Source of the DNA: Fidelibacterota bacterium
GTDB taxonomy: Bacteria > Fidelibacterota > Marinisomatia > Marinisomatales > TCS55
Assembly (NCBI GenBank): GCA_046861385.1
Contig: JBHHTW010000046.1
Coordinates: forward strand, 1 to 12,810
Direction: 5' to 3'
Length of the DNA stretch: 12,810 bases
The notes beneath the pieces were generated by a model. The model had not been told where the DNA came from and made no database searches. It was given only the letters and a program-made list of their open reading frames with translations. This document shows positions 3,814 through 12,810 of the stretch, piece by piece; the stretch's first letter is position 1, and each line of letters starts with the position of its first letter. A program made the position numbers and the translations under genes.

Positions 3814-4284
3814 ATCGATATTTTCAGCCATGGATTGTGGGGAAGAGGACTGTTTGGGCATCGTGGCCATCCGGGAATTGCTATTTTTTTCGGTATTTTT
3901 CCTGATATTTTTTCTTTTGGAATATTTGGATTCGTGAGAGCATTACAAGGTGAGTTTCAAATGGGACCACCTCCATTGAATATTATACCTGACTGGGTCG
4001 TATTCAATTATAATTTATCACACAGTTTTGTAACAGCATTGGTTGTCATAGGTGCGGTTGCTATACGAAAGAGGAATTTGGCTTTTACCATGTTAGGTTG
4101 GCCATTGCACATTCTGATGGATTTTCCCTTTCACACCAGAAATTATTTTCCAACTCATTTTCTCTGGCCCTTGACTGATTTTTCAATCGATGGAATTCCC
4201 TGGTCGCATCCATTGGTCTGGTTTCCAAATTTGGCGGGTATTATTTTTCTTTATCTTTATCGATTTAAACAAAAAAGGAAATAG
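3814..4284 (+). CDS. Membrane-bound metal-dependent hydrolase (YdjM/DUF457-like); probable start at ATC 3814 (ORF track uses TTG 3835)
   Basis: Motifs (I)DIFSHGLWG, GIFPDI, LSHSF, LHILMD and FLWPL, with several hydrophobic segments. The first conserved His lies upstream of the TTG. SD-like TAAGGG at 3801-3806. Confidence 0.7.
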   Translation: MDIFSHGLWGRGLFGHRGHPGIAIFFGIFPDIFSFGIFGFVRALQGEFQMGPPPLNIIPDWVVFNYNLSHSFVTALVVIGAVAIRKRNLAFTMLGWPLHILMDFPFHTRNYFPTHFLWPLTDFSIDGIPWSHPLVWFPNLAGIIFLYLYRFKQKRK

Positions 4285-4285
4285 A

Positions 4286-4495
4286 ATGAAAACTGGAACA
4301 ATCAGGCACTATGATGCTGAAAAGAAATTTGGATTTATCCGTGGTGAAGACGGTGTGGATTATTTTTTCCATGGCGGAAGCTTGAGTCCCCGCCTTCAAA
4401 AAATGTCTGGATTACTGAGGGAAGGATTCCGGGTAAAATTTGATACTGATTTTGATATGAAAGGGGATAAGGCAGTAAATGTTCAACCGGAATAG
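4286..4495 (+). CDS. Cold-shock domain protein (69 aa)
   Basis: MKTGTIRHYDAEKKFGFI...DYFFH...LREG.RVKF...KGDKAVNV, with RNP1 (KFGFI) and RNP2 (YFFH). AAGGA SD upstream of ATG 4286, 1 nt after the upstream TAG. Confidence 0.9.
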   Translation: MKTGTIRHYDAEKKFGFIRGEDGVDYFFHGGSLSPRLQKMSGLLREGFRVKFDTDFDMKGDKAVNVQPE

Positions 4496-7207: not shown

Positions 7208-7474
7208 TTACTCGACACAACAGCAGTCATCAACAACTTTTACCGTTTCAATATTAAAATTAGTGCCACCAAGGTCGAGTTTATAGCGTATGCAGGCTCC
7301 AATTTCAATTCCGTCAATCTCGCCTAGTTCAGCAATATCTTCTGTGGTTACTTCGTCGAAATAATATCCATCAAGGATTGTGCCTCCACACTCGTCGCAA
7401 CCTTTTTCATCATTCGCACACCCAATTAAAACCAATAGTAATATTAGAAATAATGGAAAAATTTTATGATTCAT
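7208..7474 (-). CDS. Small acidic Cys-rich lipoprotein, unknown function
   Basis: 88 aa. Signal peptide ending LLVLIG-C (lipobox). Mature part has CDEC, a single C and a terminal CCC. Spaced 3-4 nt from its operon neighbours. Confidence 0.75.
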   Translation of the reverse strand: MNHKIFPLFLILLLVLIGCANDEKGCDECGGTILDGYYFDEVTTEDIAELGEIDGIEIGACIRYKLDLGGTNFNIETVKVVDDCCCVE

Positions 7475-7477
7475 TTT

Positions 7478-7798
7478 CTACTCCTGTGGTTTTTCAAAAT
7501 TAGCAGCCGACATCAATGACCATTTTCCGTTCTCCGGGGTTCGACTGGGTTCCAGGCGATATAATTCACCTGTGGCAGTATCTAAAAGATAATGCCAATG
7601 GGTGCGATCGATGCTAAAACTCTGCAGTTGATAGCGACCAGAAGCTTCCGGCTTATTCAGCTCTGCTTCCATATACTCCTCAATTTTCAATAATAATGAA
7701 TGGAGGGAATCGTTTTCAGCTTCTGCAGCACCTGTAAATACGAAGAAAGATGCCGTTATGATAACGCCGGTTATAAAACTGATTATGGATTTTTTCAT
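7478..7798 (-). CDS. Small exported or membrane-anchored hypothetical protein
   Basis: 106 aa. AGGAG SD, MKKS plus a hydrophobic N-terminus, and a C-terminal GRYQ...LLDTATG segment. Confidence 0.8.
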   Translation of the reverse strand: MKKSIISFITGVIITASFFVFTGAAEAENDSLHSLLLKIEEYMEAELNKPEASGRYQLQSFSIDRTHWHYLLDTATGELYRLEPSRTPENGKWSLMSAANFEKPQE

Positions 7799-9228: not shown

Positions 9229-9400
9229 GACTGTTTCATAGCCAAATCTGATTCTTTAAATTGCCCGGTATTTTTTTGCAAATATAATTACGAAAATAAT
9301 CAATTTGAGATAAGTCTCTGGTTTACCTATATCTAAATCAAATACTCTCATCAATTATTTAAAATAGTAATCAATAATACAATTGAATAGAAAGGATAAC

Positions 9401-10087
9401 ATGAAATATCTATTTACACTTACTTCACTTTTGATTCTTATTGGCTGCGGATCAGATCAATCGTCAAACGTCGTATTAGAATCGTCTATTGACTCTGTCA
9501 GTTACAGTATAGGAGTTGATATTGGGAAAAGCATGAAAACACAGAAACTGGACCTGAATGAGGAAGCGCTTTTTGAAGGATGGAGCAATGCATTCAATGG
9601 AACTGACTTAAAATTAACAGATGATGAAATGCTAGCGATACTCAACTCATTTCGGAAAGAATTTCAGGAAAAATCACGTCAGCAAGCACAGGTTCAAGCT
9701 GAAGAAAACCTGGCAAAAGGAACCGCTTTCCTGAAAGAAAACGAGACAAAAGAAGGCGTGGAAACTACCGAGAGCGGTCTGCAGTATAAGATCATTAAGC
9801 ACGGGACCGGAATCAAACCAAAAAGCACCGATAGGGTTTCCGTTCATTATCGAGGTACGTTGATCGATGGCGAAGAATTTGATAGTTCTTATAAAAGAGG
9901 AGCCCCAGCCACATTTGCTGTTACAGGTGTCATAAAAGGATGGACTGAGGCATTGCAATTAATGCCGGTTGGTTCGAAATGGGAATTATATATCCCTTCC
10001 AATTTGGCCTATGGGAGTGGTCCCCGCGGCCCTGGCGGACCAAACAGCGCTCTTATTTTTGAAGTTGAATTATTAGGGATTGAATAA
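9401..10087 (+). CDS. fkpA: FKBP-type peptidyl-prolyl cis-trans isomerase (FkpA/FklB/Mip-like), lipoprotein
   Basis: AAGGA SD then ATG 9401 (228 aa). Lipobox LILIG-C, FKBP_N motif SYSIGVDIG, SGLQYK, VHYRGTLIDGEEFDSSY, VIKGWTEALQLM, IPSNLAYG, LIFEVELL. Exact orthology within FkpA/FklB/Mip is not resolved. Confidence 0.93.
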   Translation: MKYLFTLTSLLILIGCGSDQSSNVVLESSIDSVSYSIGVDIGKSMKTQKLDLNEEALFEGWSNAFNGTDLKLTDDEMLAILNSFRKEFQEKSRQQAQVQAEENLAKGTAFLKENETKEGVETTESGLQYKIIKHGTGIKPKSTDRVSVHYRGTLIDGEEFDSSYKRGAPATFAVTGVIKGWTEALQLMPVGSKWELYIPSNLAYGSGPRGPGGPNSALIFEVELLGIE

Positions 10088-10109
10088 ACTTTTATTACCA
10101 ATTTGGGAT

Positions 10110-10149
10110 TTTAAACCCCTGGATTTTCAATTGAAACCAGGGGTTTAAA
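10110..10149. terminator. Probable bidirectional terminator between the FKBP gene and the motAB operon
   Basis: 13-bp perfect inverted repeat TTTAAACCCCTGG (10110-10122) / CCAGGGGTTTAAA (10137-10149), with inner palindrome TTTCAATTGAAA. The distal motB stop codon (10145-10147) lies in the right arm. Confidence 0.75.
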
Positions 10150-10855
10150 TTGTTAACTGTAATTCTTGTCCTGATTTTAAAAGTGATGCATTAATGATGA
10201 TATCCACCCGACGGTTCAATAATCGATTTTGCGTTGAGATATTTTCTACAAGGGGTTTGTATTCACCATAACCCTTTATTGCAAACAGTTGCGGCGGTAG
10301 ATTCAGCTGTTCCTGTAGGATTCGCATCACTGTCTGTGCGCGAGCCGCGCTGAGTTCCCAATTATTTTTATAGTTTGAACCTGGGATTAACGGAGTATTA
10401 TCGGTATGACCCTCCACAAGAATTTTCACGCTCCATTCAAGGTCATTTTCACGAAATGATTTAAAATCTTTTTCATATGATGGAAGCTCATTCAATTTAA
10501 AAATATTAAGGTTTTGTATTTCATCGGTAATATCATGGAGTCGTAAAATAAGGTCTCTGCTGGGTATAGCTTCTCCTTCTTGAAACATACCTTTACTTTG
10601 GATCGATATATGAACTCCTTTAGTATCCTGTCGAACATCTATTTCAGATAAACCTTTTTCGATTACTGATTGACTCAGCTCGTCGGTGGCAATTGTGAGC
10701 TGGTGGTTGATCCAATTATGAACCTTTGAAATACGACCTGATTCGACTGAAATCATCATAATAAAAAATGTAATTAATAATGTTATCAAATCCCCGTAGC
10801 TGATCAGCCAGGTATTTTTTATTTTTATATCAAACGGGTGCCTATATTTCAGCAT
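10145..10855 (-). CDS. motB: MotB/PomB-family stator B subunit (copy 2, ion-binding Asp intact)
   Basis: 236 aa. TM helix WLISYGDLITLLITFF (Asp22). OmpA-like peptidoglycan-binding domain with VEGHTD, NWELSAARA, GYGEYKP and NRRVDI. Confidence 0.9.
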   Translation of the reverse strand: MLKYRHPFDIKIKNTWLISYGDLITLLITFFIMMISVESGRISKVHNWINHQLTIATDELSQSVIEKGLSEIDVRQDTKGVHISIQSKGMFQEGEAIPSRDLILRLHDITDEIQNLNIFKLNELPSYEKDFKSFRENDLEWSVKILVEGHTDNTPLIPGSNYKNNWELSAARAQTVMRILQEQLNLPPQLFAIKGYGEYKPLVENISTQNRLLNRRVDIIINASLLKSGQELQLTI

Positions 10856-11543
10856 ATATTAAAGAGGACTCAAGTTGAAATTTTATAAAAAGCTCTACTC
10901 TTCGATTTTCAGAATAATTATCAATACTGGTTTTAGGAAGAAAAGGTCCATAACCGGCAATTGAAAAGATTTTTGGATTTAACCCCGTATTTTCTTGCAG
11001 CAGTTTCATAAAAGAATATGATCTGGCTGTACTTAAATCCCAGTTGCTGGTGAATTCCCCAGATTGAACTGGAAGTGCATCTGTATGTCCTTGAATTAAT
11101 ATTTCAAGACTGAGGATTTTATTTTGCTTTTTTAACTTTTTCGAAATCACTTTATTCCATTGTATAAGACTGTCCAATTCAAGATCTTTGATGATCGTTG
11201 ATAGAGAATGGATATAAGGTATAAAATTATCTGTGATTTTACTCGAGTTTGATCTGAACATGGATTGATTCTCGACGATGGATGGTATAACGAGTCTAAC
11301 GCCCAATGTGCCAGTATTTTCTACATCGAGCCAATCTAGTTTATGCACCGTTTTTTGAACAACAATTTTCTCAAATATATCACGGGTAAGATTATCTGCA
11401 ACCTGAAATGTGGATTTGGCATCATGATTTTTCATGGTAACCATCAGTATAAAAAAGGCCAAGACGGCCGTCAGCAATGAGGCATAAGTTATCATCCAGC
11501 GATCACCGTCACCGGAAGTAGGCTTAGAAGTATTAATTCCCAC
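10842..11543 (-). CDS. motB: MotB-family stator B subunit (copy 1, ion-binding Asp replaced by Ser)
   Basis: 233 aa, GTG start overlapping the motA end. TM helix WMITYASLLTAVLAFF (Ser22). OmpA-like domain with IQGHTD, NWDLSTARS, AGYG...P and NRRVEL. Confidence 0.88.
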   Translation of the reverse strand: MGINTSKPTSGDGDRWMITYASLLTAVLAFFILMVTMKNHDAKSTFQVADNLTRDIFEKIVVQKTVHKLDWLDVENTGTLGVRLVIPSIVENQSMFRSNSSKITDNFIPYIHSLSTIIKDLELDSLIQWNKVISKKLKKQNKILSLEILIQGHTDALPVQSGEFTSNWDLSTARSYSFMKLLQENTGLNPKIFSIAGYGPFLPKTSIDNYSENRRVELFIKFQLESSLIYAEI

Positions 11544-12363
11544 TTTCAGACCGGTGAAGTTCTTTGGCGTTTTTATCTAAGAATGTTAGAAGTTTTTCAA
11601 CCATTTTTAGGTGATGCTCCTTCTGATGGATACTTTGTATTCCCATAATAATCATTTCGTTAATATACATTTCCTCTTCCGTTTTTATTTTCAATTTTCC
11701 AGCAATCGGATTAAACACTAAATTTGAAAGTAACACACCATAAAATGTTGTGACCAGTGCGACCCCCATTCCGATCAGAAGATGATTCATCGAATTCTCC
11801 ATCTGCATTGAATATCCGGTGGCAGAATCGCCATTGGATTGAGATGTCATCATGAGGATGAGTCCCATTACAGTGCCGAGTAAGCCAAATGCAGGAGCAT
11901 ATGTTCCCATATTTTCAAACATTCGCTGTCCAATCGCGTGTCGTCTTGTCATATGGTCTATTTCATTATGAAGAAATTGCAGCAGTTTATTCGTATCTTT
12001 TTCGATTGTCATGTATTGAAGACCATTCCTGAGAAATTTGTTTTGAATAGTTGGAATTATCTTTTCCAAAGCGACAATACCCTGCTTCCGGGATGTGATA
12101 TTAATATCGACCAACGTACTGATAATATCATCATCAGACTCAACTTCTTTTCCTCTAAAAGCCAGTCCGGCTACCTTGAAAAGTTTAAGAATTCTTTTTA
12201 ATGGGTAATTAATTAATGTTGCTGCTGTCGTTCCACCCAAAACAATTGCTATGCCCTGATAATTAAGAAATGTTTGTGGTATTGTTTTTGTTACACTATC
12301 AACCATACCAAAAATAATTAATCCTAATCCAACAATAAACCCAATAATAGTACCTGCATCCAT
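11533..12363 (-). CDS. motA: MotA/PomA-family stator A subunit
   Basis: 276 aa. MD..TIIG start, IVLGGT..A, SRKQGIVALE, APAFGLLGTVMGLI, MGVALVTTFYG, PIAGKL. AAGGAA SD upstream. Confidence 0.93.
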   Translation of the reverse strand: MDAGTIIGFIVGLGLIIFGMVDSVTKTIPQTFLNYQGIAIVLGGTTAATLINYPLKRILKLFKVAGLAFRGKEVESDDDIISTLVDINITSRKQGIVALEKIIPTIQNKFLRNGLQYMTIEKDTNKLLQFLHNEIDHMTRRHAIGQRMFENMGTYAPAFGLLGTVMGLILMMTSQSNGDSATGYSMQMENSMNHLLIGMGVALVTTFYGVLLSNLVFNPIAGKLKIKTEEEMYINEMIIMGIQSIHQKEHHLKMVEKLLTFLDKNAKELHRSESGN

Positions 12364-12810
12364 TACAAAATTCCTTTTAACATATTATTAATAGTATTGA
12401 TTTTATTAACACAACGACTGACCTCGCTCATTTATTAAAATTTAAAGGACTATTCATAAAGCGAAAAGTATCTGATCCTAGCTGATAATTTATCTTTAAC
12501 TGACTATATCCAATACTCTGAAATTTACTTTTAGGGAGATTAATGTTATCTAACAGTGATTGACTTTAGCTGACAATTGTTAAATACACATCATTATGAA
12601 CATTCATTCCGTTTTTAAAATATTATTTTTTACTTAAAAATAGTCTTTTTATTTAATTTCATCAGTAATAGCCTAAACAAATTTACTTTGATGAAAATTT
12701 ACAAAAAACTCAAATATGATTACTAATAATCAATTATAATTTATTGAAGAGATTATTATTTAATCAATTGTATTAAAAACTGTATTTCACTTTAACATAA
12801 AAATTATCAT

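Follow-up and report, generated by a model that had tools for sequence, protein, structure and literature searches.

A motA-motB-motB operon of Fidelibacterota and Gammaproteobacteria whose first MotB can do without the ion-binding aspartate

Introduction

Current models of the MotAB, PomAB, ExbBD and TolQR motors place two identical B chains in each unit, with aspartates that alternate in ion binding, and to our knowledge the need for both aspartates has not been tested in a natural system. The stretch of DNA analysed here (the window, 12,810 nucleotides) raises the question of whether a motor of this type can be built around a single ion site, since it carries an operon in which one motA gene is followed by two motB paralogues: the first (copy 1, hereafter B1) has serine at the position where the second (copy 2, hereafter B2) has the canonical transmembrane (TM) aspartate. 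The window is the whole of contig C95 of genome G000 (2.43 Mb in 104 contigs, 97.85% complete), which comes from a marine bacterium of the Fidelibacterota, a phylum formerly called Marinimicrobia or SAR406 (PMC11652737). We find that this motA-B1-B2 trio is a variant of the known MotAB-type 5:2 ion-driven rotary motor and is conserved across phyla. The reading that we favour, with a probability of about one half, is that its products assemble into a MotA5-B1-B2 unit that has a single ion site in place of the usual two.

Results

To determine the distribution of the trio, we searched 401 genomes of the phylum with copy 1 (E <= 1e-30), recovering an orthologue in 49 genomes from 16 of 114 genera, and inspected all 49 loci for gene order. 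The trio is present in the same order in 48 of them (47 complete and one, G305, cut by a contig end); the remaining genome, G044, has only a single A-B pair, and its MotB falls outside the B1 and B2 clades described below. The corresponding search with copy 2 returned matches at E <= 6e-55 in 47 genomes, the next match appearing only at 1.6e-42. These comprise 46 of the trio genomes and G139, in which B2 is present and the C-terminus of B1 is visible at the contig end, making it a 49th likely carrier locus; contig ends cut B2 in G305 and G153. Wherever the contig permits a view, B1 and B2 were never found apart in the 401 genomes, and no version of the trio clade consisting of motA and B2 only was seen among them. 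The distribution is patchy, with the trio in 2 of the 65 other genomes of the window's own family, and the B1 proteins of its genus group in the tree with members of two other families, which suggests some transfer of the trio within the phylum. Its neighbours vary by lineage (ProRS-RecO-x-rhomboid in two families), and gene context is not informative on its function.

In the window the three genes overlap on the minus strand by 11 and 14 nucleotides (nt), as the initial annotation had reported and the coordinates confirm (Table 1). The motA/B1 overlap recurs in the orthologous locus of G004, where B1 starts with ATG, and the B1/B2 overlap in both G004 and G002; overlaps of this length are compatible with coupled synthesis of the trio. 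Although B1 and B2 are only 32% identical in the window, their TM helices run in register from W16 (DRW16MITYAS22LLT in copy 1, NTW16LISYGD22LIT in copy 2). Translation upheld this register, as did phmmer alignments that pair Ser22 of B1 with the MotB Asp of B. subtilis (6YSL, 'YAD') and C. sporogenes (6YSF, 'FSD'). The TCA serine codon, which the initial annotation had argued could not be a single-base error, is no sequencing artefact: all 13 database homologues with E <= 6e-50 have Ser at this site, and the trio recurs in the 48 genomes above. Database homologues of copy 1 carry the NCBI names Fidelibacterota, Candidatus Neomarinimicrobiota or FCB group metagenome-assembled genomes (MAGs).

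The motA product matches Pfam MotA_ExbB (PF01618, 3.6e-23), B1 matches MotB_plug (PF13677, 7.1e-12) and OmpA (PF00691, 5.5e-08), and B2 matches the same two families (OmpA, 6.5e-11; MotB_plug, 1.9e-09). In the Pfam scan neither B1 nor B2 matched the ExbD/TolR family PF02472, which the true ExbDs of the genome do match. None of the three trio genes attains an NCBIfam equivalog cut-off; for MotA/MotP/PomA all ten models remain under theirs, the best score being 167.4 bits against the 394 set for MotP.

We then calculated Nei-Gojobori ratios of nonsynonymous to synonymous substitution rates (dN/dS) for 18 pairs of genomes. Twelve of them dropped out through saturation or failure in one gene or more, leaving six usable pairs with dS < 1.5 in all three genes (Table 2). 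The ratios range over 0.010-0.043 for MotA, 0.020-0.140 for B1 and 0.028-0.127 for B2, and B1 is clearly under purifying selection, slightly less constrained than MotA and B2. A GTG start and NCBIfam scores under every curated cut-off might point to a decaying duplicate or an annotation artefact. We rejected this explanation, together with sequencing error, and give it a negligible probability: B1 has dN/dS values of 0.05-0.14 (lower in the Asp-type pair), its frame is intact in 48 genomes, its closest orthologue has ATG at the same place, and the family spans two phyla.

Table 2. Pairwise dN/dS of the three trio genes in the six usable genome pairs
Pair	MotA	B1	B2
G000-G004	0.043	0.116	0.076
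G036-G315	0.022	0.066	0.049
G116-G065	0.010	0.046	0.030
G051-G067	0.038	0.140	0.078
G051-G094	0.042	0.126	0.127
G108-G140 (Asp-type B1)	0.014	0.020	0.028

The position of the ion-binding carboxylate differs sharply between the two paralogues. Across the 48 trio genomes the B1 site holds Ser 28 times, Asp 19 times and Ala once; the B2 site is Asp in 47 of 47 trios (one B2 sequence, L012, having been scored by eye). Serine has TCN codons in 25 genomes and AGY codons in three, and it must have been reached at least twice because these codon families are not joined by a single step.

Homologues from outside the phylum extend this picture. A profile of 20 B1s run against 1.84 billion representative proteins yielded 36 matches at E <= 1e-30; among the best 22 of these (P0057-P0078) the site is Ser in 12, Ala in 4, Gly in 2 and Asp in 3, with one fragment. 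Named among the best 22 are Thiomicrospira aerophila AL3 (WP_006459372.1), Sulfurivirga caldicuralii (WP_074201651.1) and a Thiotrichales MAG. A genome scan located at least four gammaproteobacterial trio loci (two in Hydrogenovibrio, one each in Thiomicrospira sp. WB1 and a Thiomicrorhabdus sp.), each with motA followed by B1 (Ala, Ala, Thr, Gly) and after it B2 (Asp). They lie among housekeeping genes (glyS-HAD-acyltransferase and UDG/parE), and three of the hosts have an ordinary flagellar FliG and 8-9 MotA/ExbB-family genes. Conservation of the A-B1-B2 order and selection on B1, the two properties on which the initial annotation had made its proposal depend, are thus borne out by 48 of 401 Fidelibacterota genomes plus at least four gammaproteobacterial loci and by the dN/dS values above. 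The trio is not unique to the window; the special feature here is its flagellum-less host.

A similar layout was observed in five further loci (L086, L089, L090, L139 and L140), from Desulfatitalea, Desulfobacteraceae, 'delta proteobacterium' and Pseudomonadota MAGs, in which a MotB that has Gly or Ser in place of the Asp (TM motif 'WQ.[IV]Y..') comes after motA and before an Asp-bearing MotB. With the four gammaproteobacterial loci, these bring the loci with an Asp-less first B to at least 9 of the 80 listed; L111 and L156 have Asp in both Bs. Two proteins with a TM motif like that of the L086-type loci, P0157 and P0173, fall outside the window's B1 clade (tree 2, below), and these loci may represent a second lineage of the motA-B(no Asp)-B(Asp) layout.

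To elucidate the history of the site, we inferred two trees, with branch support from the Shimodaira-Hasegawa-like approximate likelihood ratio test (SH-aLRT). Tree 1 (48 B1s, 12 of 48 B2-class rows made up of 11 trio B2s and the MotB of the G044 pair, and two outgroups; a quick search, no bootstrap) resolves separate B1 and B2 clades (SH-aLRT 100 and 99) with at least three state changes on B1. In tree 2 (71 rows, which sample the phylum B1s at 20 of 48 and the trio B2s at 11 of 47), gammaproteobacterial and other B1-like proteins join the Fidelibacterota B1s (SH-aLRT 93), and gammaproteobacterial B2s join the Fidelibacterota B2s (SH-aLRT 99). On these trees B1 and B2 appear as separate old clades, each with members of both phyla. 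The Asp-bearing B1s form one clade nested deep in one family, sister to the single Ala form (tree 2), and the codons fit a path from Ser (TCC) through Ala (GCC) to Asp (GAC/GAT) and on to Ser (AGT/AGC) in one three-genome subclade. The simplest reading of these data would be that the Asp of B1 disappeared early, came back once and was then lost a second time. The initial annotation had held that retention of Asp by homologues of copy 1, or relaxed selection on them, would speak against its proposal: Asp is indeed found in 19 of 48, within the one nested clade for which regain is the simplest reading, and selection on B1 is not relaxed.

The B1 site thus tolerates Ser, Ala, Gly, Thr or Asp, and the B2 Asp never varies. 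The occurrence of four residues other than Asp indicates that B1 does not need a carboxylate. Alternatively, B1 might carry the ion, for example Na+, through Ser22 and the hydroxyls of T19, Y20 and T25, as could be argued from Ser being the commonest residue in the phylum and reached from two codon families. However, the 18 Asp-less representatives among the best profile matches include four with Ala and two with Gly, residues incapable of ligating an ion; Ala is the residue of Hydrogenovibrio and Gly that of Thiomicrorhabdus; and no compensating acidic residue was found in TM3 or TM4 of MotA, either in the window or across the 48 trio MotAs. Because Ala and Gly also occur at the site, ion binding through Ser is unlikely, and we regard this alternative as very improbable.

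To relate the trio to solved stators, we aligned its products to proteins of known structure. MotA residues 4-267 align over their full length to C. sporogenes MotA (6YSF/8UCS, E 4.6e-39). Across the 48 trio MotAs almost every position of TM3 and TM4 is invariant, and the TM3 and TM4 prolines are kept in the window in the motifs YAPAFG and F.PIAG. R/K92 and E100, retained in 48 of 48 trios, correspond by alignment to solved MotA to the Arg/Glu pair R90/E98 of E. coli, which is described in PMC4525482 as important for stator-rotor contact.

On the B side, B2 has its TM Asp22, plug and OmpA domain all present. The peptidoglycan-binding signature of B1 (GHTD, SNW.LS..R, GYG, NRRVE), which the initial annotation had described as intact, is invariant in 20 of 20 aligned B1 orthologues, and no part of the protein is better conserved than the TM helix, in which W16, Y20, L28, A29, F30 and F31 are invariant in the same 20. 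B1 also has a periplasmic signature of its own, DWL.VENTG.KG..L.IPS (W71, L72, E75, G81 and P87 invariant in 20 of 20), which B2 lacks. Such a signature would suit a B1 that stays outside the MotA ring as a peptidoglycan-binding membrane accessory, positioning or stabilising an A5(B2)2 unit much as the periplasmic scaffolds of some flagellar motors do. This arrangement is nevertheless improbable: the MotB pattern of the B1 helix (W16, T19, Y20, T25, L28-A29-F30-F31) is stricter than the rest of the protein, a constraint that a mere anchor does not need, and Pfam still scores its N-terminus as MotB_plug.

The coexistence of Ser and Asp forms of B1 within one genus (3 Ser-B1 and 18 Asp-B1 genomes) allowed us to compare their partners directly. 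MotA shows zero fixed differences between the two groups and B2 a single one, at the residue that follows its Asp, which is Thr in the 18 genomes with Asp-B1 and Met in the three with Ser-B1. In the other 25 Ser-type genomes this residue is Met, Leu, Val or Ile. We take this change as only a hint of B1-B2 coupling.

We next asked what machinery the trio might serve in its host. The families FHIPEP (FlhA), Flagellin_N, FliMN_C, Flg_bbr_C and FliP had no match in the 97.85%-complete genome, and control genomes matched each of them. The genome is without flagellar export, rod, hook or filament genes. Since it has no flagellar gene set, the operon, although flagellar-type by descent, is not a flagellar stator in this organism.

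The genome does hold four MotB_plug and four MotA_ExbB matches. On contig C83 (L035, 3920-11478) a cluster encodes a CarboxypepD_reg protein, two TPR proteins, a MotA of 260 amino acids (aa), a MotB of 263 aa, a FliF-like protein (YscJ_FliF_C, 523 aa) and a FliG with three domains (310 aa). The FliG-like protein, which retains most charged residues of the C-terminal helix, can be aligned to the middle and C-terminal domains of solved FliG (3HJL, 7.5e-21), and the cluster looks like a non-flagellar rotor-stator module. Elsewhere on C83 (L035, 16847-18909), ExbB-ExbD-ExbD-TonB constitutes a second one-A/two-B motor in the genome. Contig C36 (L036, 7576-9706) carries a further set, comprising a MotA of 271 aa, a MotB of 241 aa and a third protein (192 aa) whose only match, to DUF4352, is weak and below threshold; this set adjoins the gene of a protein that bears a sorting domain for type IX secretion. 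The TM Asp is kept in both ExbDs, in the C83 MotB and in the C36 MotB.

Of these sets, the one on C36 is closest to the trio. A periplasmic insertion in the TM3-TM4 loop is common to trio MotAs and C36-type MotA and absent from C83-type MotA, the MotB clade of the C36 set is the nearest relative of B1 and B2, and in G036 a C36-type set lies directly upstream of the trio. On the strength of this adjacency and of the MotB relationship, the trio may derive from a C36-type set. In G067, a genome in a single 2.8-Mb contig, a TPR-MotA-MotB-FliF-like-FliG-like cluster is followed about 7 kb downstream by the trio, with unrelated genes between them, which is a weak functional clue.

Across the phylum, FlhA is present in 84 of 401 genomes and FliG_C in 294. 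The FliG_C proteins divide into a flagellar class (E about 1e-40), seen where FlhA is present too, and a divergent class (about 310-330 aa, E 1e-18 to 1e-28) with a nearly phylum-wide spread. Among trio genomes FlhA is found in 17 of 48 and missing from 31, G067 included, and the trio thus occurs both with and without flagella. FliG_C has a match in 45 of the 48, the three without one being 63-87% complete, and a FliG-type partner for the trio is plausible. A titles-level look at the literature found nothing on MotA/FliG in Marinimicrobia or on a non-flagellar rotor-stator module.

The features of the operon are collected in Table 1. A scan of 9900-12810 for promoters and terminators gave a number of sites not above that of shuffled sequence. 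Convergent to the operon lies a gene (9383-10087, plus strand) for a Mip-like FKBP peptidyl-prolyl isomerase with an N-terminal FKBP_N domain, whose product passes the NCBIfam BamJ cut-off (119.9 bits against 100). Elsewhere in the window, open reading frames (ORFs) of 88, 106 and 149 aa, in 7208-7798 (minus strand) and 3835-4284 (plus strand), remained unmatched in both Pfam and NCBIfam; because the 149-aa ORF runs into the start of a cold-shock-domain ORF (4190-4495), one of the two calls is probably wrong.

Table 1. Genes, sites and domains of the trio in the window
Feature	Position	Strand	Remarks
motA	11533-12363	-	276 aa, ATG start; four TM helices, with a large cytoplasmic domain between TM2 and TM3
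motB copy 1 (B1)	10842-11543	-	233 aa, GTG start; Asp-less MotB paralogue
motB copy 2 (B2)	10145-10855	-	236 aa, ATG start; MotB with canonical Asp
Overlap, motA stop and B1 start	11533-11543	-	11 nt
Overlap, B1 stop and B2 start	10842-10855	-	14 nt
B1 TM helix, residues 16-37, WMITYASLLTAVLAFFILMVTM	11433-11498	-	
B1 Ser22 codon, TCA	11478-11480	-	at the catalytic-Asp position
B1 OmpA-like peptidoglycan-binding domain, residues 132-205	10929-11150	-	Pfam stretch
B2 Asp22 codon, GAT	10790-10792	-	
B2 residue 23, directly after Asp22	10787-10789	-	

Discussion

The initial annotation had offered two readings of the operon, a heteromeric B1B2 core or an Asp-less B subunit acting as a regulator. 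Conservation, selection and co-occurrence fit either of them and do not separate the two. The second, the main rival, corresponds to a MotA that forms separate complexes, an active A5(B2)2 and an ion-dead A5(B1)2, the latter of which would serve as a brake, a placeholder, a static anchor or a competitor that determines the number of active units at work on the load. B1 keeps all the MotB features for binding MotA and peptidoglycan, the tolerance of its site for Ser, Ala, Gly, Thr or Asp looks as if the chemistry there were irrelevant, and in Aquifex aeolicus, as reported in PMC4525482, MotA/MotB1 and MotA/MotB2 each work alone as chimeras. Yet a competitor that is always co-transcribed and translationally coupled offers no obvious control point, the perfect co-occurrence of B1 and B2 and the lack of any A-B2-only form in 401 genomes are not what such a competitor would predict, and the lone fixed B2 change that accompanies the Asp-to-Ser switch in B1 adjoins the B2 Asp, which is hard to explain without a shared complex. 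We consider separate homodimeric units rather unlikely, and favour the heteromer because B1 and B2 co-occur strictly, in fixed order and with overlapping genes, because the B1 helix is conserved, and because an invariant B2 Asp accompanies a labile B1 site, with the single B2 change falling beside that Asp.

Several observations weigh against the one-site heteromer and explain why we hold it at no more than about one half. In the genomes of the 19 B1s with Asp a mixed unit would have two ion sites. The Aquifex MotBs are read in PMC4525482 as alternative MotA partners, each working alone. The covariation of the B2 residue amounts to one evolutionary event, and G060, an Asp-B1 genome of another genus, has Met after the B2 Asp. 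Furthermore, in the E. coli MotB helix register given in bioRxiv 10.1101/2023.03.05.530362 the B-B core consists of A31, M34, M38, F41 and W45, and the residue after Asp32 faces MotA and not the other B chain; because this residue lies off the B-B core, any B-B coupling would act via the ion pathway or MotA. As for the putative ring, the 45 of 48 trio genomes with FliG_C stand against 294 of 401 overall, so the link is weak, and the gammaproteobacterial hosts have an ordinary flagellar FliG instead. The analysis shows gene content, order, conservation, selection, co-occurrence and the lability of the B1 site; the co-assembly of B1 and B2, the one-site mechanism and the load are deductions.

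In the MotA5-B1-B2 unit that we favour, a MotA pentamer, a B1 that needs no carboxylate and an Asp-bearing B2 would make up one motor, with B1 and B2 paired as a heterodimeric axle within the MotA ring and each of them fixed to peptidoglycan. A published model, as presented in bioRxiv 10.1101/2023.03.05.530362, assumes that MotA rotates only when both Asp residues are protonated. The neutral B1 residue would then act like a permanently protonated Asp and, because it would always satisfy its half of this condition, the B2 Asp alone would gate each turn. If true, the motor would have half the ion sites per turn and a permanently 'neutral' second chain.

The load cannot be a flagellar C-ring, since the organism has no flagellum. 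Here the best candidate may be the FliF-like/FliG-like ring encoded beside another MotAB, because MotA keeps the two charged FliG-contact residues. A fuller version, in which an obligate B1-B2 axle with one Asp would, in flagellum-less Fidelibacterota and together with the two other MotABs, drive a free-standing, non-flagellar FliF/FliG-like ring, is possible but doubtful.

The nearest published case is the motA/motB1/motB2 operon of A. aeolicus (Takekawa et al. 2015, PMC4525482), which likewise has one motA followed by two OmpA-type motB genes, and which supplies the precedent for a one-A/two-B arrangement with OmpA-type MotB of which the initial annotation had not known. In that operon, as described there, the TM/N-terminal regions of the two MotBs are 97% identical and carry Asp in both, as follows from this identity and from each working as a chimera. 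In contrast, the TMs of B1 and B2 in the window differ, the proteins are 32% identical and belong to separate old clades, and B1 is without Asp. The canonical MotA5MotB2 and PomA5PomB2 stators (6YSF, 6YSL, 6YKM, 8BRI, 8UCS) resemble the trio in the full length of MotA, its prolines and Arg/Glu pair and the features of B2, and differ from it in that the trio has two unlike B genes, one of them Asp-less, scores far under the NCBIfam cut-offs and resides in a flagellum-less host. One A-type with two B-type subunits is also the composition of Myxococcus AglR-AglQ-AglS and of ExbB-ExbD-ExbD, whose B subunits are TolR/ExbD-like and without the OmpA domain that both trio Bs have; the question of an AglQ/S heterodimer is stated as open in the review PMC9389320. 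A 2025 survey of MotAB diversity (PMC12505986) uses 'FIT' for flagellar-type and assigns the B-subunit role to the gene immediately after motA, and its main text is without the words 'aspartate' or 'D32'. Our literature search turned up neither an Asp-less MotB paralogue nor a natural MotB heterodimer, and the trio with an Asp-less B1 is apparently unpublished.

The trio provides a conserved and selected case in which one B-type gene has been without a carboxylate for very long and its partner never loses Asp. If B1 and B2 share one MotA ring, it would be a ready-made one-site motor, whose step size, ion-to-rotation ratio and torque could be compared with those of the two-site form. The natural Asp and Ser versions of B1 within one genus supply pairs for such comparisons, and the presence of the trio in harmless sulfur oxidisers available in culture (Thiomicrospira aerophila AL3, Sulfurivirga caldicuralii and Hydrogenovibrio sp. 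SC-1) makes experiments feasible. Flagellar-type stators and a FliF/FliG-like pair in genomes with no further flagellar gene point to a non-flagellar use of rotor and stator.

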